Source of the DNA: an uncultured delta proteobacterium | GTDB taxonomy: Bacteria; Desulfobacterota; BSN033; UBA1163 | Reading direction: 5' to 3' | Assembly (NCBI GenBank): GCA_963739325.1 | Contig: CAVTZZ010000036.1 | Span: forward strand, 1,777 to 65,776 | DNA: 64,000 bases | Part shown: positions 41,120 to 57,872 of the stretch, in pieces | Layout of the letters: the number at the start of each line of letters is the position of its first letter | How positions within the stretch are numbered: position 1 is the first letter of the stretch | The notes under the pieces: model-generated | The model's database searches: none | Seen by the model: the letters and a program-made list of their open reading frames with translations, nothing else | Told to the model about the DNA's origin: nothing | Program-made: the position numbers and the translations under genes

Positions 41120-42463
41120 TCAACCCTTCTCAACCTTCCTTAGAACCTCCTCTAAGATCGTGAGGGCAATATCCGCTTCTCTCTGGGTCATAATCAAAGG
41201 CGGGCTAATGCGGATCACATTCTCTCCGCATCCTAAGATAAGGAGCCCCTTTTCGAAACAGCCTTGAATGACCGCATTCCTCTCTTCGATTGCCTTCTTC
41301 TTTGTTTTCCTATCCTTGACCATTTCGATTCCAATCATCAACCCCTTTCCCCTCACATCGCCAATCAGACGAAATTGTTTTTGGAAATCTCTCAGATTTT
41401 TGAGAAGGTACTCCCCCTGTAGGATGGCATTTTGGATAAGTCCTTCTTCAAGAAGTTCGATCGTTGTCAGGGCAGCTTGGCAACTGATGGGATTGCCACC
41501 GAACGTGCTTGCATGAGAGCCGCGCACCCAATCCATCACCTCGCTTTGAGAGACCATGGCTCCCAGTGGCATTCCAGAGGCGATTCCTTTTGCCAAGGCA
41601 AAGATATCGGGTATGACACCCCAGTGTTCAATGGCCATCATCTTCCCGGTTCGTCCCATTCCACTCTGAACCTCATCGGCTACGAAAAGAATCCCGAATT
41701 CCTTTGCCAGGTCATAGAGTTTTTTGTGAAACTCTGGGGGAGGAACGACATATCCACCTTCTCCTTGAATGGGTTCCACAAAAATGGCGGCAACCTCCTC
41801 TGGAGGAATGCTCCGTTTGAAGAGGTCTTCACGAATCCACTCCACGCAGGCAAGACTGCATTCCGGGTATTCGTGCTGATGATAAGGACAGCGATAGCAA
41901 TAGGGGTAAGGGACGTGTGTCACTCCGGGAAGAAGGGGGGAAAACCCTTTCTCGAAAATTGCTTTGCTTGCCGTTAAAGAGAGAGCGCCCATGGTACGTC
42001 CATGGAAGGCTCCGAGGAAGGCCAAAATGAAGGGTCGTCTTGTATGAAACCTCGCCAGCTTGAGGGCAGCCTCAATGGCCTCTGCTCCAGAATTCCCGAA
42101 GAAAACCTTCTTCTCTTTTGGCCCGGGAGTGATCTCGGCTAATTTGGCAGCAAGGGTAGACTGCGCCTCATAGTAGAAATCGCTGCCTGACATATGGATG
42201 AGTTGTTCGGCCTGACGATGAATGGCCTCTACCACCTTTGGATGGCAGTGGCCAGTATTGCAGACAGCTATCCCTGAATTAAAATCGAGGAATCGATTTC
42301 CATCGACATCCTCTACCCACATCCCTTTGGCCTTTTTAACCACCAAGGGATAGACTCGGGTATAGGATTGAGAAACGAATTCTTGATCCCTCTCGAGGAC
42401 CCTCTTTGCGCAAGGTCCGGGAAGTTCTGTAAGGATGGAAGGAATCTGTTCAAATTTTTTCAT
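41120..42463 (-). CDS. Class III pyridoxal-phosphate aminotransferase (GABA/acetylornithine type)
   Basis: 447 aa with NSGAEAIEAALKLAR, FVADEVQSGMGRTGK, and ALAKGIASGMPLGA (PLP Lys). Confidence 0.88.
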   Translation of the reverse strand: MKKFEQIPSILTELPGPCAKRVLERDQEFVSQSYTRVYPLVVKKAKGMWVEDVDGNRFLDFNSGIAVCNTGHCHPKVVEAIHRQAEQLIHMSGSDFYYEAQSTLAAKLAEITPGPKEKKVFFGNSGAEAIEAALKLARFHTRRPFILAFLGAFHGRTMGALSLTASKAIFEKGFSPLLPGVTHVPYPYCYRCPYHQHEYPECSLACVEWIREDLFKRSIPPEEVAAIFVEPIQGEGGYVVPPPEFHKKLYDLAKEFGILFVADEVQSGMGRTGKMMAIEHWGVIPDIFALAKGIASGMPLGAMVSQSEVMDWVRGSHASTFGGNPISCQAALTTIELLEEGLIQNAILQGEYLLKNLRDFQKQFRLIGDVRGKGLMIGIEMVKDRKTKKKAIEERNAVIQGCFEKGLLILGCGENVIRISPPLIMTQREADIALTILEEVLRKVEKG

Positions 42464-42684: not shown

Positions 42685-43327
42685 TTATGGGTTTGATAAA
42701 AGGTAGGCCAGATTGTCAAGGATGGTGGTGAAAAAGACATCTTTCACCACAAATCCATCTGGGACTGTAATCTGTACCGGCGCAAAGTTTAGAATTCCTC
42801 TTATTTCTGCATCGACCAAGAGATCGGCTACACTCTGAGCCTCTAAAGGAGGAGCTGCAATGAGACCGATTTCGATCTTCCTTTCTTTCGCTACTTCCTT
42901 GAGTCGATTGATGTGAAGGACCTCCACGGGTTTGCCCAACTTTTCCGAAACCCTCCCGATCACTTTTGGAGGATCGATATCAAATGCCGCCACGATCTTA
43001 TAATTCTGTTTTAGAAAATCCTTGTAGGAGAGGAGGGCAGAGCCCAAATTTCCAACACCGATGAGGGCCATCCTCCACTCTTTGTTCAATCCCAATATCC
43101 GTCTAATATCGGAGAGTAGGTCTTTTACATAATACCCTACACCTCGAACTCCAAACTCACCGAAATAAGCCAAGTCTTTTCTCACCTGAGCGGCATTCAC
43201 CATGCATCTGTTGGCTAATTGCGCAGAAGAAACGACCTTTTCCCCCTTTTCATCCATCTGTTCCAAACACCTTGCATATCTCGATAATCTCCGAATGGTC
43301 GCTTCTGGAATCTTTAGAATACTTCAA
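42685..43327 (-). CDS. rex: Redox-sensing transcriptional repressor Rex; the 5' end needs a 1-nt frame correction near 43312 (or a non-canonical start)
   Basis: VSSAQLANRCMVNAAQVRKDLAYFGEFGVRGVGY (wHTH) and ALIGVGNLGSAL (Rossmann). The in-frame upstream codons read SILKIPEATIRRLSRYARCLEQ but have no start codon. A TTG at 43327 gives MKYSK in the adjacent frame, and joining the two yields MKYSK-IPEATIRRL, the canonical Rex N-terminus. Confidence 0.85.
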
Positions 43328-43329
43328 TT

Positions 43330-43347
43330 TTGTGACTCCCTTCACAA
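43330..43347. promoter_or_regulatory. Rex operator (ROP box) immediately upstream of rex
   Basis: TTGTGACTCCCTTCACAA compared with the published consensus TTGTGAA-N4-TTCACAA: 1 mismatch. A putative promoter on the minus strand has -35 TTGACA (43384-43389), a 17-nt spacer and -10 TAAATT (43361-43366), which places the box just downstream of the start site. Confidence 0.65.
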
Positions 43348-43438: not shown

Positions 43439-45574
43439 CTACTTCTTTTTGGCCAACTGTTTGATCGCTTCATCCAATCGATTATTTGCAAATTCTAATA
43501 ACTCTTCTGTATATTCGAGGTTATGGACGCCTTTCCCATTCTTCGCCAGATTATAATTAAATTCTGCCTCTCCAAACAATTTCCGATAGACAAAAGTATG
43601 TCCTCTTCGGCGATCAATCTTCTCTATCTCTTCACGGACACGATCGATCTTAGGGGCCACCTTCTTCAATAAATCCTCAGTAACCGTTTTCCACCGGACG
43701 ACCATCTCCCCATAACTCTGGTCATGACATTCGATACAACGTTTCTTAATCGCATCGAAGGTGTCCCTCTTTTTGCTACTTATACCACGATGACAATCGA
43801 TACATTCAACAACATCGAGCTTATTGCTCGGTCTCTCTTTAACACCAATGCCTCCCTTTCCCTGAACCAGTCTTTTAACAGAGACATGGCAGTCTTCACA
43901 TTTGACTTTCTTTCCCACTTTTCCATGATGGCATTCTGCACAATTCTTCTGAAATGTCTTTCCGTGGTTTTCGCGTGGGGAATGGCAGTCGGAACATCTC
44001 ATCCCGTGGCCTGCTACATGGGTGTCATGGGAAAATTTAGTATCGTTGAAGGGAACGGTCCGCCTCTCCATTCCAACATGGCAGAGGGATGTACAGGTTA
44101 AATGAGTCTTGAACTCCCGAGACTTGTAACCTTTATCGATTGCCGCCAGAGCTTGTTCGGTCTTATTATTAGCCGCATTGAGGAGTTTGAAGGCATATTC
44201 AATGTTATGAGTGCCTTTACCCAACAGGACAAAGCTGTAATTGTGGCGTGCCTCATTGAGAAGGTTTTGGGCTTTTTTGAACTCCGTGGCCTCCCCTTTA
44301 TTTCTCTCAAGATCGTATAACATCTTCTGAACATTAAAGATCCGTTGATCGGTCTCATTCTGCGCTTTTGAAAGAAGGGCTTTCCAATGTTTCAAGGTAT
44401 CATCAAACCCTTCACCATGGCAATCCACACAGGCTTTCCCGATTGCCATTTCCATATATTTTGTGGTATGAAGTGCAGCCTGACTCTCTTCACCCTTTCG
44501 ATGGCAGGCGATACAGTCGACGTTGGTGATAAACATCAGACTGGGAGAGTCAGGAACTCCAATCCCCCCTCTCCCACGGTATAACTCTCCTGGCCCCAAA
44601 TGGGTCTCCTGGCTATGGCACTTATCACAACTCGATGGGGCAGGATGAATAGTTGGAATCGTCCCAATCTCATGTCGGAGCGGGGTGTGGCAATCGGTGC
44701 ATTCGATCTTATGGTCAGTGACATGATTCTTGTGCATGAATTGAGAGGTATACTTGGTGCTCAGTATCTCTGGTTCATTATGACACTGGACACATTTTCC
44801 TTCCGGAACATGTCCATCCCCTTGAACAACACTAAGATGGCATTTCTCACAGGTAACCCCTCTTTCAATATACTTCCGATGATTGAAACTCCATCCATCA
44901 ATTTTAATATCTCCTTGTGGTGCGAAGTGACAAGAGGTGCAACTCCCTACAGCACATGAAAGGCACTCCCCTTCCCCTTTGGGACCAGCCTTGTAGTAGT
45001 GGCAGATGAAACAGTTGGTTTCATGAACGGTGAGGTGCACTCCCTGAACGAGCTGGGCGTGACAGGAGGTGCATCGAAGTTCCATCCCCCTTCTCAACTC
45101 ACCTAAATGTTTTCTGTGTGAGAATGCAACATTCTTATAAATCATATCCTTTTGTAGATCATCGACCCTGTGACAACCTTTTTGGAGGCAACTCGCATCA
45201 CTGATCTCTGCATGGGGCCTCTCTGGCGTCTTGCCAGAAATGAAATAAGCTACTGATACCTGGCCATCCACCCATTTGCCCTTCAGATGATTGAAAAAAC
45301 CAGGCTCATAGTGACATTTCGTACAGTTCACATGCTTATGACTTGAGGCCCTCCATGATGCCATATAAGTATTCATCTGGTGGCAAAGGCCACAAAAGGT
45401 TGGACTCTCTGAAAATTTAAGTAAAACTGCAGAGATAACAAGAAAGGAAATGATGCAGAAAACAAGTAAGACCTTTATTGCTTTTAGGTGGGTTTGGGTC
45501 CCTCTCTTTAACGCTTTAAAAAAATCGATCCAAAGGATTTTGACTAAATGATAATAATTTTTCAATTTCTCCAT
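43439..45574 (-). CDS. Membrane-anchored multihaem cytochrome c, NapC/NirT-type N-terminus, 16 CxxCH + CX4CH + CX3CH (paralogue B)
   Basis: 711 aa. One TM helix, then SPTFCGLCH...CTKCH. I counted 16 canonical CxxCH, plus CLQKGCH and CTSLCH. Two internal helical modules end in GxHNxEY. Confidence 0.9.
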   Translation of the reverse strand: MEKLKNYYHLVKILWIDFFKALKRGTQTHLKAIKVLLVFCIISFLVISAVLLKFSESPTFCGLCHQMNTYMASWRASSHKHVNCTKCHYEPGFFNHLKGKWVDGQVSVAYFISGKTPERPHAEISDASCLQKGCHRVDDLQKDMIYKNVAFSHRKHLGELRRGMELRCTSCHAQLVQGVHLTVHETNCFICHYYKAGPKGEGECLSCAVGSCTSCHFAPQGDIKIDGWSFNHRKYIERGVTCEKCHLSVVQGDGHVPEGKCVQCHNEPEILSTKYTSQFMHKNHVTDHKIECTDCHTPLRHEIGTIPTIHPAPSSCDKCHSQETHLGPGELYRGRGGIGVPDSPSLMFITNVDCIACHRKGEESQAALHTTKYMEMAIGKACVDCHGEGFDDTLKHWKALLSKAQNETDQRIFNVQKMLYDLERNKGEATEFKKAQNLLNEARHNYSFVLLGKGTHNIEYAFKLLNAANNKTEQALAAIDKGYKSREFKTHLTCTSLCHVGMERRTVPFNDTKFSHDTHVAGHGMRCSDCHSPRENHGKTFQKNCAECHHGKVGKKVKCEDCHVSVKRLVQGKGGIGVKERPSNKLDVVECIDCHRGISSKKRDTFDAIKKRCIECHDQSYGEMVVRWKTVTEDLLKKVAPKIDRVREEIEKIDRRRGHTFVYRKLFGEAEFNYNLAKNGKGVHNLEYTEELLEFANNRLDEAIKQLAKKK

Positions 45575-45667: not shown

Positions 45668-47764
45668 CTACTTCTTTTTGGCCAACTCTTTGATAGCCTC
45701 ATCCAATCGATGATTAGCAAACTCCAATAATTCTTCTGTATATTCCAGGTTATGGACGCCTTTCCCATTCTTAGCTAAATTGTAATTAAATTCTGCCTCT
45801 CCGAATAATTTCCGGTAGACAAAAGTATGTCCTCTCCGGTGATCAATTTTTTCTATCTCTTCCCTGACACGATCGATTTTAGGGACCACCCTCTTTAATA
45901 AATCCTCAGAGGCCGTTTTCCACCGGACGACCATCTCACCATAACTCTGGTCATGGCATTCGATACAACGTTTCTTAATCGCATCGAATGGGTCTCTCTT
46001 TTTGGCACTCACGCCACGATGGCAATCGATACATTCGACCACATCGAGCTTATTGCTTGGCTTCTCCTTGACGCCGATGCCCCCTTTCCCTTGAACCAAT
46101 CTTTTGACCGAGACATGGCAGTCTTCGCATTTGACCTTTTTGATCTCCTTCCCGTGATGGCATTCAGCACAATTCTTCATAAACGTTTTGCCATGATTTT
46201 CACGGGGAGCATGACAGTCAGAACACTTCAGCCCTTTGCCTGCACTGTGGGTTTCATGAGAAAATTTGATGTCGTTAAAAGGGACGGTCCGCTTCTCTAT
46301 CCCAACATGGCAGAGGGTCGTACAGGTCATCTGGGTTTGAAATTCCTTTGGCTTATAATTTTTGTCGATAGCCGCGAGAGCCTGTTCAGTCTTATTGTTC
46401 GTCGCATTGAGGAGTTTGAATGCATATTCGATATTGTGAACGCCCTTCCCCAAAAGAACAAAGTTGTAATTGTGACGGGCTTCGTTGAGAAGATTTTGGG
46501 CCTTTTTGAACTCCGCGGACCCCCCTTTATTCTTCTCAAAATTGTATAACACCTTCTGAACATTAAAGATCCGTTGATCAGTCTCATTCTGTGCTTTTGA
46601 AAGGAGCGCCTTCCAATGCTTCAGTGTATCATCGTATCCCTCACCATGACAGTCCACACAGGCTTCCCCTATCGCCCTTTCAACATATTGGGTGGTATGG
46701 AGAGCAGCTTCACTCTCCTCACCCGTTCGATGGCAGGCAATACAATCCACATTCGTCGTAAACATAAGGCTTGGGGAGTCAGGAACTCCAATCCCCCCAC
46801 TCCCGCGGTATAACTCTCTCGGCCCCAAATGGATTTCCTTACTGTGGCACTTGTCACAATGGGTGGGAGAATGAACAAAGGTGAGAATCGGTCCGATCTC
46901 ATGACGAATGTAAGTGTGGCAATCTGCGCATTCGATCTTGTGGTCGGTGACATGATTCTTATGCATGAATTGAGAAGTGTATTTGGGGCTTAGTCCTTCA
47001 GGTTCCTTATGGCACTGGAGACACTTTCCTTCAGGGACATGGCCATCCCCTTTAACGACATTGATATGACACTTTTCACATGCCACCCCTCTTGCAATAT
47101 ATTTCCGATGATTGAAGCTCCAGCCTTTGACATTAATATCCCCTTTGGGCTCAATGTGGCAAGATGAACAATCACCTACGGCACACGAAATGCACTCTTC
47201 TTCCCCTCTTGGACCAGCTTGATAGAAGTGACAGACAAAACAGTTAGTTTCGTGAACAGTGAGATGGGCTCCCTGGACGAGCTGAGCATGGCAGGTGGTA
47301 CACCGGAGTTTCATTCCTCTCCTCAACTCGCCCAGATGTTTCCCATGGGGAAAGTTTACATTCTTAAATATCATATCCCTTTTTAGGTCTTCGCTTTTAT
47401 GACACCCTTTTTGCAAACAATTACCATCATCAATTTCATAATGGAGTTTCTTTATGCCTTTCCCGATAATGATATAAGTCAATGCGAGTTGGAGATCTTC
47501 CTTTTTTCCTTTGAGATGATTCAAAATACCTGGCCTGCGGTGACAACTGAGGCAGGCCACTTCATTGTGCGAGGAGGTTTCCCAAGACTCGACATATTCC
47601 TTCATATTGTGACATAGGCCACAAAATGATGGGCTTTCTGAATATTTAAAAATTCCTGCAAAAAATACTAACAAAAGCAAAAAAAGAAGGCCATAAAGAG
47701 CCTTCTTTTTACCTTTATAAAACCATTGCATTATCCTAAGTGGAAGGCTTAATAAAGGATTCAT
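45668..47764 (-). CDS. Membrane-anchored multihaem cytochrome c, NapC/NirT-type N-terminus, 16 CxxCH + CX4CH + CX3CH (paralogue A)
   Basis: Same architecture as 43439-45574. The start is placed at MNPLLSL (47764) because the longer ORF (to 47821) would overlap the upstream gene. Confidence 0.9.
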   Translation of the reverse strand: MNPLLSLPLRIMQWFYKGKKKALYGLLFLLLLVFFAGIFKYSESPSFCGLCHNMKEYVESWETSSHNEVACLSCHRRPGILNHLKGKKEDLQLALTYIIIGKGIKKLHYEIDDGNCLQKGCHKSEDLKRDMIFKNVNFPHGKHLGELRRGMKLRCTTCHAQLVQGAHLTVHETNCFVCHFYQAGPRGEEECISCAVGDCSSCHIEPKGDINVKGWSFNHRKYIARGVACEKCHINVVKGDGHVPEGKCLQCHKEPEGLSPKYTSQFMHKNHVTDHKIECADCHTYIRHEIGPILTFVHSPTHCDKCHSKEIHLGPRELYRGSGGIGVPDSPSLMFTTNVDCIACHRTGEESEAALHTTQYVERAIGEACVDCHGEGYDDTLKHWKALLSKAQNETDQRIFNVQKVLYNFEKNKGGSAEFKKAQNLLNEARHNYNFVLLGKGVHNIEYAFKLLNATNNKTEQALAAIDKNYKPKEFQTQMTCTTLCHVGIEKRTVPFNDIKFSHETHSAGKGLKCSDCHAPRENHGKTFMKNCAECHHGKEIKKVKCEDCHVSVKRLVQGKGGIGVKEKPSNKLDVVECIDCHRGVSAKKRDPFDAIKKRCIECHDQSYGEMVVRWKTASEDLLKRVVPKIDRVREEIEKIDHRRGHTFVYRKLFGEAEFNYNLAKNGKGVHNLEYTEELLEFANHRLDEAIKELAKKK

Positions 47765-47784
47765 CTTAAGTTTTTTGTAAAAAA

Positions 47785-48366
47785 TTAAGAGGAGGATTTC
47801 ACTGGGATCTTCGTATGGCATTTCATGCAGGATTCAGGTCCTCCTTGAATCGCCTCTTCATGGCACTCGATACAGGTTAATCTGCGGGGCCGGTTCGTTC
47901 CGGCTTCCATTTTTTCGTGTGCGATATTTCTATGACAATCGATGCATTTCAGCTTTGATTCTTCGACATGGAGCTTATGGGCGATCTTCATATGGTGAGT
48001 TTCTTCTATCTCTTTCCCCGCCACATGTTTATGACAAACAAGGCAATTATCATTGACTTTCTCATCGGCGTAAAAATCTCGGGGAAACAATTGACCGGGT
48101 CTTGCATGACAATTCACACAGGTCACACGGACAGGATGAGTGGCAGAGCGCGACCACATGGAGATACTGCTCTGTCTTGCATGACATGAAAGACAGATCG
48201 TCGGATGGGCAGTCAACGTGTGCCCCACCCAGATCACCAAGATGACTCCTATCAGAGTGAGGATGGGGCCGACACCAAAAATAACCCATTTTGATTTCAA
48301 TAGGAGCATGATGTTTTTGACGTTTATCGTCGACATCAACCATTTTCTCATACTCAATACTTTCAT
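47785..48366 (-). CDS. Membrane-anchored hexahaem cytochrome c (NapC/NirT/NrfH-like)
   Basis: 193 aa. TM helix, then six CxxCH (CLSCH, CVNCH, CLVCH, CIDCH, CIECH, CMKCH). Confidence 0.85.
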   Translation of the reverse strand: MKVLSMRKWLMSTINVKNIMLLLKSKWVIFGVGPILTLIGVILVIWVGHTLTAHPTICLSCHARQSSISMWSRSATHPVRVTCVNCHARPGQLFPRDFYADEKVNDNCLVCHKHVAGKEIEETHHMKIAHKLHVEESKLKCIDCHRNIAHEKMEAGTNRPRRLTCIECHEEAIQGGPESCMKCHTKIPVKSSS

Positions 48367-48378
48367 CGACTCATTCCC

Positions 48379-50634
48379 TTACGCCTTCGAAATTATGACC
48401 AAAGTATCGTTCCAGGCCTCTCCACCACCAATTGGGTCTGAATTTCCCGAGATGATGTGATTGGGTGAGATGCCATTCCCTTCTTTTTCCCACCAGACTA
48501 AATTGGTGTTAGGATCCTTACTCTTGAATCTTTTGGCGCGAGCAATATGTCCATATCCCCAATGACCGAAATTTCTTTCGATAGCGACTACTCTTGGGTG
48601 GATGCCAAAGGTTAAACGAGCATCCGTCACAAACGATCCGGTTTTTGTAGAAATTTTAATACGATCTCCTTCTTCAATATGAAGCTGTCTAGCAACATCC
48701 TTATTGAGCCAAACAGGATTTTGATGTTTGATCTCGGCCAGCCATCGAAAATTTCCTGTTCTTGGTCCCATCACATTCGGTTCAAAAGTCACGAGGACGA
48801 ACTTACCTTTAAGATCTCCATGATCTGGAATAGGTTCATAGGTGGGAAGAGGTTGAAATCCTTTCCTTCTCAAAGTCTCTGAATAAATCTCAATCTTTTT
48901 CGAAGGGGTGTTAAACCCTTTCGACTCATACGATTTGTATCTGGGTTTTACATTGGGATCGAACCAGACTCCATTCTCTTTTAAGTATTTGAAACCCCCC
49001 GCTTTTTCCAATTTCTCAATTCCTGAGGCGACCTTCTTGATATACTCTTCTGTGGAATTGAACTTGAAGTATCGCGGTAGGCTTCCACCGATCCTGTGAG
49101 CAAGCTCTATACAAATATCTGAGATCGGGACAGATTTGCCAAACGGGGGCACGATGGGCTGCTGGAGTCCAATAAAAGGAATCAAGTCCAACGCGGGAGA
49201 TGAATCGATCCTCCAGCTCTCCAAGTAGGTGGCAGTGGGGAGGACGATGTCAGCTAATGCAGCCGTTTCGGTCATATAGTTATCTGCAACCACAATATAG
49301 GGAACCAACTTTTCATTCTTCAATACTTCAGAGGTCAACCCGCTCTCAGGGTTTTTATAAGCAGGATTGGATTCATAAACGAAATAAAATTGGGGGGTTA
49401 ACTTTCCACGTTTCACCATGGAGATAAACTTCTGTGGAGTGACCCTGATCTTTTCCAAATCGAAGGCCTTCTCTTTTTGGGGAGATGGCTTTAAGTCTGG
49501 TTCTTCAAGACGGTAAGCCTTAGGAAGACAATATCCCCCTAGGCTGTCAATACCTCCTACAAGGGTATTCAAAAGGAAGATACACCTTTCATTATAGACT
49601 CCGTTCAAATGGCTACTGACACCACGGCCCGAAATGGCTACAGCAGGCATCGAGAGAGCAAATTCCTTGGCAATCCTTTCGATATCCGATGCGGCAACCC
49701 CGCTTGTCTTCTCCGCCATCTCAGGAGTAAACTGAGATAAGTGCTGTTCGATTGAAGAGATAGGGGTATTCGTCCACTTTTGGATAAAATCTTTATTGTG
49801 AAGATTAGCCTTGACGATGACATGGGCCATAGCCAAGGCTACGACTCCATCGGTTCCCGGGCTGATCGGAAACCATTCCTCGCTATTACCAGCTGTATAG
49901 GATAGCCTCACATCAAAAGTCACTAGCTTGGCCTTCTTTTGCATCCGGCCTTCAATCAATCTTCCTATGAAACCTGTGTAATATTCGTGTGTCTCGTAAA
50001 AATTGGAGCCGAAGTTGAGGATATAATGACTATTCGCTACATCAGGGACTCCCCTTTCCTCCCCCCAGGTAAGCCGTTGACCCCAGTCCCTATTACCAAA
50101 GTTGAGGCTATCCTCATTGAGGATGAGGGTTTTACCAAAGGCTTCCAAGAACCGCTCTATGATGCCATCAGGCTCGTGTTCTGATTGGAAGACGAAGTCC
50201 TCCCTCTTTCCGCTCTGATATATTGCTTTCAATCTGGACGCGATTTCACTATATGCCTTCTCCCAAGAGATCTTCTCCCATTGCCCTTTTCCTCTTTCTC
50301 CCTTCCTGATCAATGGAGAGGTCATTCGATCCGGATCATACGCCATATTCACGGCGGCCAGACCTCTGGCACATAATTTTCCGAGATTGTTGGGATGTTT
50401 TGGATTCCCTCCAATCTTCACCAGCTGATCGCCCTCTAAAAAACCGATGATTCCGCAATGGGCAGGACAAAGTTGGCAGATGCTTGAAATCCCTTTCAGG
50501 GGCTTCCCCGTATGTCGCGATACCTGTTTTCCTCCAAACACCTCCTTGGCATAGGCAGAGAGCCCAAGATAATGCTGGAACAGGAATACCTGCATGCTGA
50601 CCAGACAAAATTTCAAAAAATCGCGACGAATCAT
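48379..50634 (-). CDS. Tat-exported molybdopterin (bis-MGD) oxidoreductase catalytic subunit, Psr/Phs/Ttr/Arr-like; substrate unknown
   Basis: 751 aa. Twin-arginine MIRRDFLKF. N-terminal FS0 motif C-X2-C-X3-C-X27-C (CQLCPAHC...KLC). MopB-type domains and a C-terminal barrel. Confidence 0.88.
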   Translation of the reverse strand: MIRRDFLKFCLVSMQVFLFQHYLGLSAYAKEVFGGKQVSRHTGKPLKGISSICQLCPAHCGIIGFLEGDQLVKIGGNPKHPNNLGKLCARGLAAVNMAYDPDRMTSPLIRKGERGKGQWEKISWEKAYSEIASRLKAIYQSGKREDFVFQSEHEPDGIIERFLEAFGKTLILNEDSLNFGNRDWGQRLTWGEERGVPDVANSHYILNFGSNFYETHEYYTGFIGRLIEGRMQKKAKLVTFDVRLSYTAGNSEEWFPISPGTDGVVALAMAHVIVKANLHNKDFIQKWTNTPISSIEQHLSQFTPEMAEKTSGVAASDIERIAKEFALSMPAVAISGRGVSSHLNGVYNERCIFLLNTLVGGIDSLGGYCLPKAYRLEEPDLKPSPQKEKAFDLEKIRVTPQKFISMVKRGKLTPQFYFVYESNPAYKNPESGLTSEVLKNEKLVPYIVVADNYMTETAALADIVLPTATYLESWRIDSSPALDLIPFIGLQQPIVPPFGKSVPISDICIELAHRIGGSLPRYFKFNSTEEYIKKVASGIEKLEKAGGFKYLKENGVWFDPNVKPRYKSYESKGFNTPSKKIEIYSETLRRKGFQPLPTYEPIPDHGDLKGKFVLVTFEPNVMGPRTGNFRWLAEIKHQNPVWLNKDVARQLHIEEGDRIKISTKTGSFVTDARLTFGIHPRVVAIERNFGHWGYGHIARAKRFKSKDPNTNLVWWEKEGNGISPNHIISGNSDPIGGGEAWNDTLVIISKA

Positions 50635-50650
50635 ATCGTTTCTCCTCCCC

Positions 50651-51565
50651 TCAACTCAAAGGAACGTATTGCCCGCCGAAAACCATCACATATCTCATGA
50701 TGAATACGCCGATGGAGGCCAATATAGCAGCAATCAATAATAAGAGAAGAGATTTCCGTGTCCTCTTAAAAATAATGATGATGGAAGGGACAATGTTCCC
50801 CAAGACATTATCTACCCAGATGTATAAGAAGCTGAATTTACCAAGACGGACAAGCTCCACCGTCTCAAAGGCATCCTCAGTATGGTAATACATCACGGTG
50901 AGGTCAGAAAACACATAGAAGACATTTAGAATCATGAACCCTGCCATCCATTTTGCAAGGAGATCGATGATATTGAGATCCTTCTCCCTCTGCTCCAGGG
51001 TTTTATCGTTATATGTGAAACGGTAACGAATCAACGCTACGATGAGCATAAAGGCCATCCCGGAAATCATTGCCGAGGCCAAGAAGTAAGAAGGCATAAC
51101 AGCGGTGTTCCATAAGACCCTGGCTTTGGCGAATCCTAAGACGAAACCTGTATATCCGTGAACACCAATAGCAGTAGGGAGGCTGATGACTCCGAAAATT
51201 TTTGACCATTTCACATTGTTTTTAAATAAAAAGTAGATATAGATCCCTGTGAAGGTGGGGTAAGCGCAAAGGATGAAAGTTCCCCAACTGAGGGGCGAAG
51301 TGGGATTGAAGTGGAGGAAGAGATACCAGAAACGTAAGGGTTGAAAAAGATCGGTTAAAAGAAAGATAGGGGATATGGAAAAGAGGATGATGACAAATAT
51401 GGCTCCGATCTTCGCCACCGGTTTATATTCATTTTTTCCAAGTAAGGTGGCAGTAATCGACACGATGGAACACCCGGCATGGAGTCCAACGATGTGAAAG
51501 TAGATGGCAATCAACATGCTGACCGCTTCATAATGGAATACATTGTAGAGAACTTGTACTTCCAT
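50651..51565 (-). CDS. NrfD/PsrC-family integral membrane quinone-interacting subunit
   Basis: 304 aa, about 8 TM helices, located between the FeS and molybdopterin subunits. Confidence 0.82.
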   Translation of the reverse strand: MEVQVLYNVFHYEAVSMLIAIYFHIVGLHAGCSIVSITATLLGKNEYKPVAKIGAIFVIILFSISPIFLLTDLFQPLRFWYLFLHFNPTSPLSWGTFILCAYPTFTGIYIYFLFKNNVKWSKIFGVISLPTAIGVHGYTGFVLGFAKARVLWNTAVMPSYFLASAMISGMAFMLIVALIRYRFTYNDKTLEQREKDLNIIDLLAKWMAGFMILNVFYVFSDLTVMYYHTEDAFETVELVRLGKFSFLYIWVDNVLGNIVPSIIIIFKRTRKSLLLLLIAAILASIGVFIMRYVMVFGGQYVPLS

Positions 51566-51582
51566 AATTTTCCCTTTTTCAA

Positions 51583-52275
51583 TTATAATTTTTCATATTC
51601 CGGATGGTAGTAGTGTTTTTCCCATCCTTTTAGCGGATCAGCCACATCCTTGTCCAGGCCAATATAATAGACATTTGGATAGGTAGCCATTTCTTTTTTA
51701 AGAACTTGGACTTTCTCCTTTGAAAGCAGTTGAGACACTTTACTGCTCGGATCCTTCAAATTCCCAAATACCATTGCATTGGTTGGACAGGTCTCCACAC
51801 AGGCCGGTAGAAGTCCAGAATCAACCCGATGAACACAGAAGTCACACTTCTGGATCATACCGGTAATTGGGTTCGCGAATCTCACATTATAAGGACACGC
51901 CGCTCTACAATAGTTACAACCGATACAGCGGTGAGGATCAATCAAAACAATACCATCTTCTTTCCGCTTATAGGCAGCCCCTACTGGACATACAGTATTA
52001 CAGATAGGTCGATCGCAATGGTTACACAGCCACGGCAGGAAAAGAACAGACATTCGAGGGTACCTCGCTTCTTCGGGACGCTCACAGTATGCGCAATCCC
52101 AGGGCAATTTAAGGGTAGCCATTTCCGGGTACGTTCCTTTTTGAATGGTTTTCACCCAAATTCTCCAAACACCGAGAGGGGTCTCATGTTCAGCTTTACA
52201 CGCCACTTGGCAGGCAAAACATCCCACACAACGCTTGAGATCAATCACCATTCCCCATTTAACTTCTTTTTGCAT
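51583..52275 (-). CDS. 4Fe-4S ferredoxin-type electron-transfer subunit (PsrB/TtrB/NrfC-like)
   Basis: CVGCFACQVACK, CNHCDRPICNTVCPVGA, CIGCNYCRAACPYN, CDFCVHR...PACVETCPTNA. These are four cluster motifs. Confidence 0.9.
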   Translation of the reverse strand: MQKEVKWGMVIDLKRCVGCFACQVACKAEHETPLGVWRIWVKTIQKGTYPEMATLKLPWDCAYCERPEEARYPRMSVLFLPWLCNHCDRPICNTVCPVGAAYKRKEDGIVLIDPHRCIGCNYCRAACPYNVRFANPITGMIQKCDFCVHRVDSGLLPACVETCPTNAMVFGNLKDPSSKVSQLLSKEKVQVLKKEMATYPNVYYIGLDKDVADPLKGWEKHYYHPEYEKL

Positions 52276-52302
52276 GAAAATCTCTCCTTGAACAGTAAAG
52301 AT

Positions 52303-53136
52303 TTATTTAACCTTAGAAGTGATTTGATATTTCTTGCTGAGATCCTTATCGAAGGCAACATCTCTCACGGTATTCGAATCAAGATCTACCTCAAAATACC
52401 ATCCCTGGGTCTTATTTTTGACCCTATCTTCCTGAGTTTGATATCGAAAAGTCACAAAATATATGGCGTCACTATAGTGGTAAAAATGTGTCATGATCCC
52501 CGAGGCCTTCTCTATTTCTTTGTCGATATCATCCACCACTTTTTTTGCCTCTTCGGATAGATCTTTTGCTTTAACTATACCTTTACCTCGGGGGACTAAA
52601 TAAAACTGAATGGACACATATTCCTCTTTGAGTCTCTTAATCCTTGAAGCAAAATATTTCGGATCGTTTTCAAGGAGCAATTCGGAAGCTGGACTTCCAT
52701 CTATTAAAAAACCTAAATCTTTCAGTTTGACTAACCCTCTTTTGATCTTCTCCATAGACCCCTTGAAATCATCTATTAATCTGCCCCCGAATCTTTCGGA
52801 ATCATACAATTGACCCGAATGGATGGCACTGTCAGCTTGCCATCCAATGATTTTCACATCCCCTTTAATCTTTTCCGCTATATTTTGGGCATCCCCATAG
52901 ACTTCATCCTTTCCTCTTGCATACTTTTTCGCCAATTCTATCGCCCTCTCTTTTCTCTCCATCTCCGCTTCAAAAAATCTCTTTGTCTCTTTAGAGGGAG
53001 GCTCAACAGGAAACCTATCAAGAACAATCGATTTATAATGGTAAAAAGCCGTAATCTGATAGACAAGAAAAAGGAAAATTGCTATCGCCACTGCCAACAT
53101 TGATATCACTACAATCTTGTTACTTGTCCCCGGCAT
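52303..53136 (-). CDS. Membrane-anchored hypothetical protein, first gene of the oxidoreductase/cytochrome operon
   Basis: 277 aa with an N-terminal TM helix and a Lys/Glu-rich soluble part without Cys/His motifs. It ends 27 nt before the FeS gene. Confidence 0.45.
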   Translation of the reverse strand: MPGTSNKIVVISMLAVAIAIFLFLVYQITAFYHYKSIVLDRFPVEPPSKETKRFFEAEMERKERAIELAKKYARGKDEVYGDAQNIAEKIKGDVKIIGWQADSAIHSGQLYDSERFGGRLIDDFKGSMEKIKRGLVKLKDLGFLIDGSPASELLLENDPKYFASRIKRLKEEYVSIQFYLVPRGKGIVKAKDLSEEAKKVVDDIDKEIEKASGIMTHFYHYSDAIYFVTFRYQTQEDRVKNKTQGWYFEVDLDSNTVRDVAFDKDLSKKYQITSKVK

Positions 53137-53444
53137 CTTGCACCCGTCCCTTTCTGAAAAGGAAGATTCCTTTCTTGAATATTCCTAACCACGTCAATGA
53201 ACTAGGTTAATGTAGAGATAAACTTAACTTAGGTTACTTCTTCGAAAACCCCACCCTTATAAAATAATAACCTTCTATCACCTTTTTATTATTATTTCAA
53301 GAAAAAATATTTTTCCACAAACAAGAGACCGATTGACTTGATTTCAAACTTGAAACTTGGTAAATTTGAAATTAGAAAAATTGGAGGGGTTAGAGTTTTT
53401 ACTTTTTTTTGGTAATTCTTTCAAAGGTTTATATTGGAAGACTG

Positions 53445-54125
53445 ATGGACAAATATTTTTTATTTGATCGTAAATGGCTCCTATTGGGGATTTCAGGCTT
53501 TTGCCTCCTTCTTTTAGGGGGAAAGGCCGATCTTTTTCTCCCCAAAGAGGGAGAAGATCCAATGGAGCGGAGAGAAGAAAGATTAAAAGTATTTCGAGAA
53601 CATAAGGATCGGTTTTTTAAAGAAGACACTCACTCTCCGTTGAAGGAAACTGACCGAAAGAAATTTAAAGGTCTCCTTTACTACCCGATCAATCTTCGAT
53701 ATGCGATGACCGGACCCATTGAACGATATCCGACTGAACCCAAACCCACCTATGTCAGCCTCCCTACCAGTAAAGGAAGGGAAAAAAAATATGTGAAATA
53801 TGGTCGGTTCCGATTTAAATGGGAGGCGAAAGAATATGTACTCCAGATCTACCGGCCTTTGGGAGGTGGGGAACTTTTTCTCCCCTTCAAGGATAAAACT
53901 TCGGGAACGGATACCTATTTGGATGGTCGTTATCTCTTTATCGAACCAATCCCTGGAGGGTCGGAATCGACTCGTACCGAGAAGGTTCTGATCGATTTCA
54001 ATCGGGCCTATAATCCCTTCTGCGCCTACAATGAAAAATATACCTGCCCTTTTGCACCGAAGGAAAATTGGTTGGAGATTACTATTCCAGCAGGAGAGAA
54101 GCATTTCCCACTATCCAAAAAATAA
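53445..54125 (+). CDS. DUF1684-domain protein with signal/anchor sequence
   Basis: FKEDTHSPL, FKGLLYYPIN, YNPFCAYNEKYTCPFAPKENWL and IPAGEK are all DUF1684-typical. The start is placed at MDKYF. Confidence 0.78.
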   Translation: MDKYFLFDRKWLLLGISGFCLLLLGGKADLFLPKEGEDPMERREERLKVFREHKDRFFKEDTHSPLKETDRKKFKGLLYYPINLRYAMTGPIERYPTEPKPTYVSLPTSKGREKKYVKYGRFRFKWEAKEYVLQIYRPLGGGELFLPFKDKTSGTDTYLDGRYLFIEPIPGGSESTRTEKVLIDFNRAYNPFCAYNEKYTCPFAPKENWLEITIPAGEKHFPLSKK

Positions 54126-54179: not shown

Positions 54180-55763
54180 TTGAAAATCAGAAGAGTTCCA
54201 ATCCTCTTGGTTGCGGTTCTGTTGATGGGTTTGTCTCAAACACCACTTGGTCAAACTGCACCCAAAGTCCAATTCAGTATCGTTTACACTAATGATGTAA
54301 TGGGTGAGGTCGAGCCCTGTGGGTGATTCAGGAGCCCTCTTGGTGGTATCGCCAAGAAATCGACTCTTATCTCCCAGATAAAAAAAGAGGGGAGAAAGAT
54401 CCTTCTCCTCGACACTGGAAACCTCCTCTTTCGAAAACTTCCTCAAACGGAAACCAAACGAAGAGATGCTCTTCTTCGTGTTGATCTCCTCCTTCAATCC
54501 TATAATGATATGGGATATGATGCGGTCAATGTGGGTGAGAAGGATTTGATGATGGGGCTAAAATTCCTCTCCGATCTGAGCCAAAAGGGCAAATTTCCAT
54601 TCATTTCAGCCAACCTTGTGGATAAAAAGACTCAGAAGGAAGTTTTCAAACCTTTTGTGATCAAAGAAATGGCTGGGCTGAAGATTGGGATTATTGGACT
54701 CCTGGATGACTTATACAACCCAACTCTTCAGGAAAAAGACCCTGGACTGATCATCTTAGAACCTCTATCGAGATCAAAAGCTCTGACTAAGAGCCTTAGG
54801 GAATATTGTGATGTGATCGTCGCCCTCTCCCAATTGGGCGAGTCAAAGGATAAAAAACTGGCCAGAGAAAATCACGAGATCGATCTGATTCTGGGAGGAG
54901 GGGGGGAATCCAAAAGGGCTGTCATTGAAAGGGTGAACGAAGTCCCCATTTATCGAATGGAACCAAGGGGAGGATATTTAGGTCGGATTGACTACTCCTT
55001 GGTCGATGCTAAAAAACCTGTCAAATTTATCATTACCAGTGAACGGGATGAGATGGAAAAGAGATTGGAAAGGTTGATCACCCGGTCAACACAACTTAAA
55101 TCAGAGATAGCGAAATCTGCGAAACAAGATGATATGAAGGTCAAGGAACTGAAGGTCTTGGAATCGAAACAGAAGGAATTGGAGAAGACCCTCTTGGCCT
55201 TCCAAGATAAAAATTTTTATAAACACATTTCGATCCCTGTCCAACTCTCTGTGAAGGACGATCCTAATATCATGAAGGGAGTGGAGATCTACCGAGCCGA
55301 ATCAGCAAAATTATACAAACCAAAAGTGGCGGCCCTGCCAGAAAAAGAGCTACCGGAGAAAGAGATGGTCGCCCGAATTCCTAAAGAGAGCCCTTTTATT
55401 GGAGCGATCTCTTGCAAACGATGCCACGAAACAAATTATCGAAATTGGCTGAAGACCAAGCATGCGAAGGCCTCCCAGACTATCGTCGCCTCTCCTAAAT
55501 ATGCCCAAGAGGAGTGTCTCATTTGCCACTCCACCGGTTATGGAAAGATGGGAGAATATGCCACAGTGGAAGAAATCCCTTTCTTCCTACGAGGGGTACA
55601 ATGTGAAGCCTGTCATGGGGAAGGAAAGGGACATCCTGGAAAGGGAGGAATTGAGAGAAAAGTTACCCTCGGCATCTGCCGAAACTGCCACACCAAAGAT
55701 CAGAGTCCTGTTTTTAATTACGTTGCCTATCTCGAAAAGATCGGTTGTAAAATCTCAAAATAA
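54180..55763 (+). CDS. Secreted degenerate metallophosphatase/5'-nucleotidase-like domain fused to a tetrahaem cytochrome c domain; in-frame TGA at 54324-54326 (candidate selenocysteine)
   Basis: TTG 54180 follows AGGTGGGG. The signal peptide is (M)KIRRVPILLVAVLLMGLSQTPLGQTA, followed by FSIVYTNDVMGEVEPCG-TGA-FRSPLGGIAKKSTLI. This is in the same frame as track ORF 54510-55763. The C-terminus carries CKRCH, CLICH, CEACH and CRNCH. Confidence 0.6.
54338..54357 (+). promoter_or_regulatory. SECIS-like hairpin downstream of the in-frame UGA
   Basis: UCUUGG-UGGUAUCG-CCAAGA starts 11 nt after the UGA, and its apical loop contains GGU. Flanking GAG/CUC could extend the stem across an internal loop. 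Confidence 0.35.
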
Positions 55764-56009: not shown

Positions 56010-57836
56010 TTATACTGCTCCGATCCGTTCCTCCACCAGTTCATATTTGGGAAATCTTCCTGTGAAGATCACCGTATCGATCGGGAACTTCGAAGGCCGA
56101 AAATGGGTATTGAAGAAATGGACTGTAAAGATGAAGCCAGAGGCTAACAATGCCTCATCCGAATGGACGATCGTTGCAATATTGAGTATCCATCCTGGCA
56201 TGAAGATGGTGAAGAATTCCGGAAACCAGAGCATCAGTCCAGAAAGTCCGATGGCGAACATCCCCCAAAAGACAGCTAAAAAGTCGAACTTCTCCCAGTA
56301 GGTCCATCGATCAAACTGGGGTTTTGGCCCTTTGTTAAAGAACCATTGGATCATACCAATGATGTCTTGCACATCCTTCCAACGAGGGCAGAGAGAATCT
56401 GGACCAAAAAGTCGCTGGAGTGGATTGGGATTTCCTTTAATCTTTTTGAAGAAGAGGAAGTAGAAGATATAGGTGATAGTGCTGCCAAAATAGCCAAAGG
56501 TAATGGCTGCACAGATGCGATGGATTAATCCTGCCATTTTAGCCCCTCCCAGAAAATGCATCAACCCACTGGCCCAGGGCGCATGGGAGAATTTTAAAGG
56601 AAGCCCGGTGAGAACAAGACCGATGAAGGTGACCATCATGGTAAAGTGAATCACGATGTCGAAGGTACTAAATCGACGATAGATGTGACCCGCTTCATCC
56701 GGCCTCACATGTTGTGGGAAGAATATTCCTTTGGCCCTTAACTCCCTCTTCTCCCAGAAGTCTTTCCGCCACCAGAAAAAGGTATGGATCCAAAAGACTC
56801 CAAAGACAGAAACCAGGAGGCCAGTCATCAGAATGAAAGTCCCATAAAGGACTGGCTCCCGCTCTGGATCGGTATGGGTTGCATGTGCGAGCCACTGAAC
56901 GAAGTTGACATTGGCCCGTGGGTGGCACTTTCCACAGGTCTCTACCAACCGAGCCTCAGAGATAAGGGACTTTGGATTATCTGGAGGCAGAATGCTATGA
57001 AAACCATGGCAGTCCGCACAACCTGCCACCAATGAAGGATAGCCTAATTCCTCAACTTTTCCGTGGTAACTTTCATAATAGGTCTGGGTAGCAATGAGAA
57101 AAACCTTATTTCGTTCCATCATCTCGTTATCGGCATGGCACTTCTGACAGACCTCTGTATGAAACTCCTTCCGCAATGCCACCACTTTTGGCTCATCCCC
57201 CTTTAATATGGGAACCTTGTGAAGACCATGACAATCACTGCAGGTAGCAGAATCCGGGTTCCCAGCAAGGACAGATTTGCCATGGACGCTTTCAGAGTAA
57301 CCATCGTCGGAATGGCAAGTTGTGCATTTCTGGACCACTCGGGTTTTATCCCCTTTCCATGGGGTCATCTCATGGATATCTTGATGGCAGTCCTTACATT
57401 GAACATCGTTGATGAAGTGGGCGCTTGCATAATGTTCGGCCCCTTCCTTTTTATGACATCGATGGCAGGTAATTGGTTCGGCTTGGATTCTTGCCCCTTT
57501 TGCCTTCACATGGGTTTTGACGTCAGTAATGTCCCAGTGGCAACCGTTGCAGGAATTGGCTCCATGAACCGACTGTGCAAATTTCCTCTCGCTGATCTTA
57601 TTGTGGCACCCGAGACATTCCGAGTTGTCGATACACTCTAAACAATATTCTCGACCCTTAATAATAAATTTCTCCCCCTTTTTTCCGGGTTCGGGAGTTT
57701 TGGTCACCCCTTCCGGTTTAGGACTCTCTTTTTCAGCAACAGGATTTGCAGACCAAATTAATCCAAGGCTTAAAGATAGAAGAATACCAGAAATGATAAA
57801 AAAGATGAAAATTGAAATTTTAAACTTCGATTTCAT
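56010..57836 (-). CDS. CbcL-like fusion: periplasmic nonahaem cytochrome c domain + HydC/FdnI-type dihaem cytochrome b membrane domain
   Basis: A signal/anchor, then nine CxxCH, then IYRRFSTFDIVIHFTMMVTFIGLVLTGLP (the b-type cytochrome entry motif). Further TM helices carry conserved His residues (IHRICA, IVHSDEA, FTVHFFNTH). An alternative start lies at 57854. Confidence 0.82.
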   Translation of the reverse strand: MKSKFKISIFIFFIISGILLSLSLGLIWSANPVAEKESPKPEGVTKTPEPGKKGEKFIIKGREYCLECIDNSECLGCHNKISERKFAQSVHGANSCNGCHWDITDVKTHVKAKGARIQAEPITCHRCHKKEGAEHYASAHFINDVQCKDCHQDIHEMTPWKGDKTRVVQKCTTCHSDDGYSESVHGKSVLAGNPDSATCSDCHGLHKVPILKGDEPKVVALRKEFHTEVCQKCHADNEMMERNKVFLIATQTYYESYHGKVEELGYPSLVAGCADCHGFHSILPPDNPKSLISEARLVETCGKCHPRANVNFVQWLAHATHTDPEREPVLYGTFILMTGLLVSVFGVFWIHTFFWWRKDFWEKRELRAKGIFFPQHVRPDEAGHIYRRFSTFDIVIHFTMMVTFIGLVLTGLPLKFSHAPWASGLMHFLGGAKMAGLIHRICAAITFGYFGSTITYIFYFLFFKKIKGNPNPLQRLFGPDSLCPRWKDVQDIIGMIQWFFNKGPKPQFDRWTYWEKFDFLAVFWGMFAIGLSGLMLWFPEFFTIFMPGWILNIATIVHSDEALLASGFIFTVHFFNTHFRPSKFPIDTVIFTGRFPKYELVEERIGAV

Positions 57837-57872
57837 AATCCCCCCAAAATCCAAACTTGATTAATTACCAAT

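Follow-up and report, generated by a model that had tools for sequence, protein, structure and literature searches.

We describe a five-gene cluster on the minus strand, at positions 47785-53136, of a 64,000-nucleotide stretch of DNA from an uncultured delta proteobacterium (GenBank assembly GCA_963739325.1, contig CAVTZZ010000036.1; the whole stretch is referred to below as the window, and positions are counted from its first letter). The cluster encodes a MopB-family protein, an iron-sulfur (FeS) protein, an NrfD-family membrane protein and a membrane-anchored hexahaem cytochrome c, together with a hypothetical protein. The MopB protein lacks the cysteine that serves as molybdenum ligand in its closest structural relative, and homologues that share this loss are nearly always followed by a gene for a multihaem cytochrome. 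On the evidence of the sequences we lean towards the interpretation that the predicted complex is a quinone:cytochrome c oxidoreductase resembling Qrc and alternative complex III (ACIII), which would have arisen separately from a Psr-type enzyme and would represent an intermediate stage, with the ligand lost and the FS0 cysteine motif kept.

Results

The MopB subunit (48379-50634, minus strand, 751 amino acids) is PsrA/PhsA-like and matches the Pfam domains Molybdop_Fe4S4, Molybdopterin and Molydop_binding. Its N-terminus, read from the sequence, begins M-I-R-R-D-F-L-K and continues to a cleavage site AYA/KE, that is, a twin-arginine translocation (Tat) signal, and its FS0 motif is intact (C53-x2-C56-x3-C60-x27-C88); both features are conserved in homologues. 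The nearest solved structure is PsrA of Thermus thermophilus (PDB 2vpw_A), found with an E-value of 5e-63 from the single sequence and 1.1e-77 from the family profile, the latter over the full length. The molybdenum ligand of PsrA, Cys173 (in SVSLC), falls opposite Asn178 (in EDSLN) in single-sequence and profile alignments alike, and the ligand cysteines of ArrA and acetylene hydratase are placed in the same column 178 by single-sequence alignment, that of ArrA also by profile. In 15 homologues that share 54-85% identity this column is occupied by N, D, Q, H or Y, and the twin arginine and the FS0 cysteines are conserved; across 38 clusters formed at 50% identity the residues in it include A, Y, G, S, K, R, E, T and V.

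The remainder of the expected metal site is no better preserved. His145 and Arg332, which are active-site residues in the PsrABC structure, lie opposite Glu152 and Arg337; the first column is variable in the family and the second is occupied by G, S, D, R or P. The domain-IV motif H-T-H-S-R-T is degenerate in the Cys-less family and strongly conserved in its Cys-containing relatives. When columns conserved in the Cys-less clade but not in Cys-containing relatives were examined for a replacement ligand, no Cys, Ser or Asp suited to that role was found among them, and the search yielded just a C-terminal DP…WW…G…PN signature that is common to the Cys-containing sister group too. Selenocysteine as the ligand is excluded, the MopB open reading frame (ORF) being continuous through the region.

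The initial annotation of this locus had considered the MopB protein probably catalytic on the strength of its FS0 motif and Tat signal. Both are indeed present; QrcB and ActB1, for their part, are devoid of cofactors (PMC13059093, PMC5928083). The alignment to PsrA and ArrA that the annotation proposed did locate the ligand column; what the alignment found there, however, is an asparagine in a freely varying column, accompanied by unconserved equivalents of His145 and Arg332 and by no replacement ligand, and the catalytic assignment is not supported for an enzyme of the Psr or Ttr type. The Tat signal is no sign of catalysis because cofactor-less ActB has one too (PMC5928083). Judged from these alignments, the MopB protein is most likely not a normal catalytic subunit of the Psr or Ttr type.

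The gene context of the family was compared in 105 loci (labelled L001-L105), of which 25 came from a scan of one genome per species and 80 from a metagenome scan seeded with the FS0-less subclade described below; ORFs were called in all 105 and their products classified against the window proteins. The window MopB protein shares 53-98% identity with more than 100 metagenomic proteins. The clade to which they belong is large, extends over at least six phyla and has no functional name; its carriers, which come from sediments and groundwater, include Syntrophaceae-like Desulfobacterota, Aminicenantes, Chloroflexi, Bacillota and Actinomycetes, and the titles of the metagenome-assembled genomes (MAGs) that contain close homologues refer to Deltaproteobacteria, Syntrophaceae and Thermodesulfobacteriota. 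The gene order FeS, NrfD, MopB, correctly recognized in the initial annotation as the B-C-A order of ttrBCA, is constant in every locus with scorable upstream genes, and MAGs labelled Bacillota, Chloroflexi, Actinomycetes and Aminicenantes keep it at an identity of 36-47%. Three distant relatives (25-29% identity) retain the cysteine, and in two of them (L020 and L023) the genes are arranged A-B-C, as is usual.

Where the downstream sequence was long enough to be scored, a gene for a multihaem cytochrome of the NapC/NrfH/TorC type follows 52 of 57 Cys-less MopB genes, with its start usually between -3 and +150 nt from the MopB stop, and just one of 27 Cys-containing sister genes (Fisher p ~1e-15 before any correction for phylogeny, a value that overstates the independence of phylogenetically related loci). 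Three of the five exceptions are N-terminally truncated fragments that do not include the ligand column and are unscorable, and in the exceptional locus L010 a 10-haem gene is found upstream of MopB instead. The linkage recurs in several distinct Cys-less subclades, each with different cytochromes. The cytochrome is a constant partner of the Cys-less MopB clade, not a chance neighbour.

The subclades form a graded series. At one end are Cys-containing proteins with an FS0 motif of the form C-C-D-C and no cytochrome, followed by Cys-less proteins with FS0 and a 5-, 6- or 12-haem cytochrome, and at the other end are Cys-less, FS0-less proteins accompanied by NapC-like cytochromes with five or seven haems. 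The Cys-less subclades comprise one with a hexahaem cytochrome of the window kind, often followed by a 16-haem protein; one with a TorC/NapC-like pentahaem and FS0 of the form C-C-D-C; one with a NapC-like heptahaem that has two extra class-I domains, where the MopB protein is FS0-less (CLNS, CINS or SGNA); and one with 12-haem and larger proteins. In a neighbour-joining tree of 122 full-length representatives, which is midpoint-rooted, has no support values and is indicative only, the Cys-less proteins around the window MopB form one large clade, adjoined by the FS0-less ones. The initial annotation had allowed for placement inside a characterized clade whose members routinely carry the same cytochrome genes; the clade has no characterized member.

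Two groups illustrate the ends of the series. The sister group L027-L069 (for example, L037, 6995-9634) has the B-C-A order and a ligand cysteine in HTSxCESSKK, and no cytochrome gene follows; its MopB proteins are ~860-890 amino acids long, with a C-terminal extension of ~100 amino acids, and the third cysteine of FS0 is replaced by Asp. This group also has no functional name, and its PhsA-like score is under the cutoff. In L070-L079 (for example, L075, 6746-10229) the MopB protein has neither the Cys ligand nor FS0 (CLNS/CINS) and keeps the Tat signal, and it is followed by a seven-haem protein composed of a NapC-like head and two class-I cytochrome c domains resembling PdsA and QcrC. The FS0-less subclade was considered as a possible QrcB and rejected, as all members are PhsA-like and score under the QrcB cutoff.

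These comparisons bear on another view of the locus, namely that it encodes an ordinary polysulfide, thiosulfate or tetrathionate reductase that merely adjoins cytochrome genes. Profile scores place the subunits nearest to Psr, Phs and Ttr (the best matches are PhsA, PsrA, TtrB and PsrB) and the likeness to ACIII chains in the PDB is weak; the gene order is that of ttrBCA; and where databases name the MopB homologues they use generic or automated annotation, such as thiosulfate/polysulfide reductase chain A or selenocysteine-containing dehydrogenase. However, no member of the cluster reaches an NCBIfam equivalog cutoff, and the scores fall far below it: 318.8 bits against a cutoff of 694 for PhsA, 115 against 1750 for TtrA, 217 against 416 for TtrB and 49 against 314 for TtrC. 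An ordinary reductase is moreover contradicted by the missing Cys ligand and PsrA catalytic residues, and the cytochrome link is specific to the Cys-less clade across phyla; we regard this view as very improbable. The Qrc profiles are likewise not reached (QrcA 18 of 180 bits, QrcB 167 of 440, QrcC 124 of 400, QrcD 50 of 570), and against the QrcB profile the Cys-less family does not outscore its Cys-containing relatives.

The FeS subunit (51583-52275, minus strand, 230 amino acids) is a PsrB/TtrB-like four-cluster ferredoxin (Fer4_11, 2.4e-32). It contains 16 cluster cysteines, as expected for four [4Fe-4S] clusters, which are kept in nearly all subclade groups, and it has no signal peptide of its own. 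TtrB is its best NCBIfam match, and in the PDB it is much closer to PsrB (2vpw_B, 8.7e-53) than to ActB (~1e-19). At residues ~50-70 there is a 21-residue insert, PEMATLKLPWDCAYCERPEEA, with an extra CxxC, confined to relatives with MopB identity of at least ~70%. The CXXCH strings found in some FeS homologues were considered as haem sites and turned out to be the CxGCH of a cluster motif.

The NrfD/PsrC-family integral membrane subunit (50651-51565, minus strand, 304 amino acids) matches nearly the whole of PF03916 (1.6e-39) and has eight hydrophobic helices, as counted by reading the sequence. The comparison with PsrC, QrcD and ActC suggested in the initial annotation gives E-values of 6.5e-07 for ActC (8k9e_C) and 1.6e-03 for PsrC (2vpw_C), and NCBIfam scores are 71 bits for DsrP, 67 for NrfD, 50 for QrcD and 49 for TtrC, all far under the cutoffs. 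Of all the subunits it is the best conserved (95% identical to its counterpart in L001), and it presumably holds the quinone site. A subgroup with ~47% MopB identity (L008, L021 and L022; for example, L021, 5388-10783) has genes for NrfD, a Cys-less MopB with intact FS0, and a hexahaem cytochrome; immediately upstream in L021 are genes that, by reading of ORF translations, resemble the ATP-synthase genes atpI, atpB and atpE, and all three loci have a gene for a HemL-like aminotransferase there.

The hexahaem cytochrome (47785-48366, minus strand, 193 amino acids) has one transmembrane (TM) helix at residues ~27-47 and six CXXCH motifs at residues 58, 83, 108, 141, 165 and 180. It matches Cytochrom_NNT (PF03264; 34.6 bits, cutoff 24.1) as well as Paired_CXXCH_1 and Cytochrome_C7, and it is a two-part protein: the N-terminal part is NapC/NirT/NrfH-like and the C-terminal part c7/ActA-like. 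The corresponding PDB matches are NrfH (2j7a_C, 7.6e-07) and, for the C-terminal half, a weak match to ActA (6f0k_A, 1.3e-03). The NrfH equivalog TIGR03153 is not reached (37.6 bits against 134.2), and the first haem motif, CLSCHAR, is not the CXXCHxM of NrfH. Relatives from several phyla have a gene of this kind after MopB.

Directly downstream of the hexahaem gene are two further cytochrome genes on the same strand, at 45668-47821 (with the likely start ATG at 47764) and 43439-45574, and the operon as delimited in the initial annotation, while right in its five genes, therefore ends too early. The two are tandem paralogues of 717 and 711 amino acids, respectively, with an NrfH-like head and an identical layout of 18 haem-type motifs each (16 CXXCH, one CX4CH and one CX3CH), and both carry CXXCHxM, as CGLCHNM and CGLCHQM. 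The central part of the 45668-47821 protein, the one copy searched, resembles PDB 6i5b_A (1.7e-13), which is OcwA, a surface cytochrome of Thermincola. Next after the hexahaem gene there is a homologous gene for a 16-haem protein in L002, L005, L006, L011, L016, L082, L084, L085, L092, L094, L097, L100 and L105, and most relatives have one copy, whereas L097 and L105 have two.

All five ORFs of the cluster, including the four described above, were found as the initial annotation had drawn them, with Pfam and NCBIfam assignments in agreement. They are tightly packed, with gaps in transcription order of 27, 17, 16 and 12 nt from the ORF coordinates. The first gene (52303-53136, minus strand) encodes the hypothetical protein of 277 amino acids, which has an N-terminal TM helix (residues 8-26) and zero matches in Pfam or NCBIfam; among the fetched loci its homologues are restricted to the close relatives L001, L005 and L009, and it is possibly a lineage-specific accessory subunit. 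The ratio of nonsynonymous to synonymous substitution rates (dN/dS) relative to L001, the closest genome locus, is 0.11 for the hypothetical protein, 0.046 for FeS, 0.043 for NrfD, 0.098 for MopB and 0.11 for the hexahaem cytochrome. The operon is functional, as the dN/dS of all five genes shows purifying selection; MopB changes at about twice the rate of FeS and NrfD, yet is clearly constrained. A decaying operon is ruled out by these values (0.04-0.11) and by conservation across phyla. A scan for promoters and terminators gave counts near shuffle expectation.

Several genes around the cluster also encode redox proteins or regulators. The upstream neighbour at 56010-57854 (minus strand) encodes a protein of 614 amino acids in which a part with nine CXXCH motifs is fused to a di-haem membrane domain of the cytochrome b type (Ni_hydr_CYTB/FdnI-like), an architecture that fits the description of CbcL (bioRxiv 10.1101/2023.05.03.539133). 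This CbcL-like gene is syntenic in L001, L004, L005 and L009; in L084 and L085 the cluster is preceded by a gene of comparable kind for a 9-haem protein. A gene for a Rex-type redox-sensing regulator (42685-43347, minus strand; Put_DNA-bind_N and CoA_binding domains, the N-terminus read by hand) lies downstream of the large cytochromes, and its homologues are downstream of the cluster in L002, L004, L005, L006, L011 and L016 and nearby in L007. The neighbourhood composed of the CbcL-like gene, the large cytochromes and the Rex gene is syntenic down to 56% MopB identity.

A palindrome resembling a Rex box, TTGTGACTCCCTTCACAA, with one mismatch to the consensus, is located at 43330-43347 just upstream of rex; a search allowing up to three mismatches gave five matches, which equals the chance expectation, and zero upstream of the operon, so that the one-mismatch site at rex alone deserves attention. 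A promoter-like site, TTGACA-17-TAAATT, is also found just upstream of rex. The 5' end of this gene is anomalous: with the sole canonical start, TTG at 43266, the DNA-binding domain would lack its first ~17 positions. The sequence upstream encodes the conserved KIPEATIRRL in frame, and a TGA stands five codons before it with no ATG, GTG or TTG between. A non-canonical start, an error in the sequence or truncation of the gene could account for this.

On the plus strand, a DUF1684 gene (53409-54125) lies between the cluster and a gene for a UshA-like metallophosphoesterase with a C-terminal four-haem c554-like domain (54180-55763). The ORF of the latter was listed with a start at 54510, and from there the NCBIfam model 'UshA-like (seleno)protein' is matched only from model position 104. 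In-frame upstream reading gives VEPCG-TGA-FRSPLGG, with the TGA at 54324-54326; because this in-frame TGA yields a PCGU motif, the product is very likely a selenoprotein with an N-terminal signal sequence. The UshA-like gene is a conserved neighbour in L001, L005, L009, L084 and L085. Beyond rex, at 41120-42463 (minus strand), is a class-III aminotransferase that resembles HemL (glutamate-1-semialdehyde aminomutase) by length and domain only. The DUF1684 and HemL-like genes recur near the cluster in relatives, the HemL-like gene also in the distant loci L008, L021 and L022.

Discussion

The family has neither a functional name nor a matching description in the literature searched; a 2021 review of NrfD complexes lists fourteen, none with the composition found in the window (PMC8076601). 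NrfD/cytochrome clusters of MBNT15, of Planctomycetota/KSB1 and of cable bacteria were considered and are different systems by description. We conclude that the window complex should not be filed under Psr, Ttr, Qrc or ACIII: going by its sequences, it is best seen as a complex that would work most like Qrc and ACIII and would descend from something most like Psr/Phs.

By sequence, PsrABC and PhsABC (T. thermophilus PsrABC, PDB 2VPZ family) are closest to the window MopB and FeS subunits, and they share the eight-helix NrfD-type anchor, the Tat signal and FS0 in subunit A and the four clusters in subunit B. The window complex differs from them in that equivalents of Cys173, His145 and Arg332 are missing, the gene order is B-C-A instead of A-B-C, and a membrane-anchored multihaem subunit is obligatory. 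TtrBCA shares the gene order, and TtrB is the best match of the FeS subunit, but TtrA is Cys-ligated, catalytic and without a cytochrome partner, and TtrC has nine helices (PMC6303296).

In its inventory the complex parallels Qrc and ACIII, as the initial annotation had recognized; in each of them a MopB homologue without cofactors is accompanied by an FeS protein, an NrfD protein and a cytochrome of five or six haems that is anchored in the membrane (PMC6303296, PMC5928083, PMC13059093). In QrcABCD the MopB homologue is joined by an FeS protein with four clusters, a subunit of the NrfD family and a hexahaem cytochrome with a membrane anchor, and the complex exchanges electrons between periplasmic cytochromes and menaquinone; QrcB is non-catalytic and carries no redox cofactor, and QrcD has 10 helices (PMC13059093). 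The window complex differs from Qrc in its intact FS0, its NrfD with eight helices, its gene order and the type of its cytochrome, which has a NapC/NrfH-like head. With regard to the absence of cofactors seen in QrcB, the window MopB has lost the ligand and keeps the FS0 motif, and a related subclade is FS0-less.

ACIII (ActABCDEF) likewise combines a MopB-like domain that is free of cofactors with an FeS domain, subunits of the NrfD type and ActA, a pentahaem cytochrome anchored by a TM helix. Its ActB is a fusion of a MopB-like and an FeS part in which ActB1 carries no cofactor and the first cluster is [3Fe-4S], and it has two 10-helix NrfD subunits (ActC and ActF) together with ActD and ActE (PMC5928083). 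In the window, in contrast, the genes are separate, there is one NrfD with eight helices, the FeS subunit has 16 cysteines and FS0 is retained; homologues of ActD, ActE and ActF were looked for in the cluster by ORF, Pfam and NCBIfam comparison and none was found. The NapC/NirT/NrfH/TorC family contributes the single-TM NrfH-like head seen in the hexahaem and in both large cytochromes, but members of that family normally work without an FeS/NrfD module, and the hexahaem does not have CXXCHxM. Among the inner-membrane cytochromes of Geobacter (ImcH and CbcL), CbcL has the architecture found in the neighbour at 56010-57854. The initial description of the locus as a hybrid of Ttr/Psr and Qrc/ACIII architectures is right in outline, and its catalytic MopB is the part that is unsupported.

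If the complex is an oxidoreductase of the Qrc/ACIII kind, it would face the periplasm from the membrane, with a MopB subunit that performs no molybdenum chemistry and a NapC/NrfH-like multihaem cytochrome as the point of electron entry or exit. Menaquinone or menaquinol would bind to the eight-helix NrfD subunit, and the four [4Fe-4S] clusters of the FeS subunit would carry electrons between this site and the haems of the hexahaem, as in ACIII, where the cluster nearest to the quinol site is ~11 Å from haem I of ActA (PMC5928083). The hexahaem would in turn hand electrons to the co-encoded cytochromes of 16-18 haems. The MopB protein would serve as a Tat-targeted carrier and scaffold for the FeS subunit, with FS0 as a side branch or a leftover; the survival of MopB could be explained by the dependence of the signal-less FeS protein on a scaffold and on a partner that is targeted by Tat. 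FeS proteins that have no signal can hitch-hike across the membrane with a Tat partner. The neighbours, namely the CbcL-like gene, the two cytochromes of 16-18 haems with OcwA-like domains and the Rex-type NADH sensor, hint at electron flow from menaquinol to periplasmic or extracellular cytochromes, that is, at electron disposal in the direction of ACIII, with the reverse direction, that of Qrc, as the less favoured possibility.

Several observations weigh against this interpretation, and a first group of them concerns the MopB protein. FS0 is conserved in the MopB lineage and the residue after its fourth cysteine (Lys or Arg) is basic in 79% of members, as would be expected if electrons still reached the pterin site; this degree of conservation exceeds the needs of a mere scaffold. 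The Cys-containing relatives have 72 conserved columns, among them the classical motifs for nucleotide binding, and ~81% of these are retained in Cys-less MopB; so far as sequence can tell, the pterin cofactor may therefore still be bound, and arsenite oxidase is a molybdenum enzyme with the bis(pyranopterin guanine dinucleotide) (bisPGD) cofactor that works without a protein ligand. As a test of cofactor binding, however, retention of canonical columns is uninformative, the FS0-less subclade retaining the same columns equally (~81%). An AlphaFold2 model of the MopB protein, built from a 16-sequence alignment, was too poor for a fold search or inspection of the pocket (mean predicted local distance difference test score, pLDDT, 51; predicted template modelling score, pTM, 0.41).

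The protein could on these grounds be a genuine Mo- or W-bisPGD enzyme whose metal has no protein ligand or an unconventional one, acting on a periplasmic substrate and linked to the quinone pool through the FeS/NrfD module and NapC-like cytochromes. Besides the conserved Tat signal, FS0 and basic residue, such an enzyme is suggested by the retained nucleotide-binding motifs (GxNP-E, FD[VP]R-S-TA, PGTD and ADxxLP-x3-YLE), by the purifying selection on MopB, by Asn181, which stands three residues past the former ligand position and is conserved in 24 of the 38 clusters, and by the fact that cytochromes of the NapC/TorC type are classical partners of periplasmic molybdenum enzymes (bioRxiv 10.1101/2023.05.03.539133). 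Yet the ligand column, the equivalents of His145 and Arg332 and the domain-IV motif vary freely even among close relatives, and variability of the first shell is not expected of a conserved active site; no conserved replacement ligand was found; and relatives without FS0 still have this set of genes and these "cofactor" motifs, which makes the motifs no proof of a bound cofactor. Asparagine is not a known ligand of molybdenum. We consider a ligand-less enzyme doubtful, though a serious alternative.

The second group of difficulties concerns the cytochrome and the FeS subunit. The hexahaem has the layout of a quinol dehydrogenase, with the first haem motif ~10 residues past the TM helix, and the NrfD/FeS module would then look redundant. 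In the subgroup L008, L021 and L022 there is no FeS gene adjacent to the genes for NrfD, FS0-bearing MopB and hexahaem, and a simple wire model leaves this subgroup unexplained; an NrfD protein with no FeS partner would be unusual. Both observations would suit a complex with two quinone sites, as the initial annotation had suggested, in which the hexahaem, with its NrfH/NapC head geometry, is the true quinol dehydrogenase, the NrfD/FeS module provides a second quinone site or a proton-conducting one, and the FS0 of MopB lies on the path, giving a redox loop or two coupled quinone reactions. We find this improbable: it is the two large cytochromes that have the CXXCHxM of NrfH haem 1 and not the hexahaem, ActA and QrcA are TM-anchored yet are not quinol sites (PMC5928083), oxidation and reduction of the same quinone pool would amount to no net reaction, and the FeS gene of the three loci may lie elsewhere in their genomes.

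A bolder version of the quinone:cytochrome c oxidoreductase, which we rate as rather unlikely, is that the family is a living intermediate between a catalytic Psr-type molybdoenzyme and a cytochrome-coupled quinone oxidoreductase, in which FS0, possibly with a ligand-free (metallo)pterin, is used as a wire to the haems and not as a catalyst. If true, a pterin site would serve as a wire, and there would be a route to the Qrc/ACIII architecture independent of both, with the stages before and after FS0 loss extant.

Conclusions

The most plausible view of the window complex is that it is a third variant of the Qrc/ACIII type, with an independent origin. Qrc and ACIII have so far been the two known cases of a molybdoenzyme scaffold that lost its cofactors and was coupled to a multihaem cytochrome. 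The clade described here would represent the same outcome from a Psr/Phs-like ancestor, with intermediates that are extant: Cys kept and no cytochrome; Cys lost, FS0 kept and a cytochrome present; and FS0 lost. Since the intermediate states survive, the evolutionary path is testable. Inferences about sulfur cycling that are drawn from genes annotated as thiosulfate/polysulfide reductase in metagenomes are probably wrong for members of this family. With CbcL-like proteins and large multihaem cytochromes as its neighbours, the family may provide an inner-membrane gateway, overlooked so far, through which electrons are transferred to the exterior or between species.

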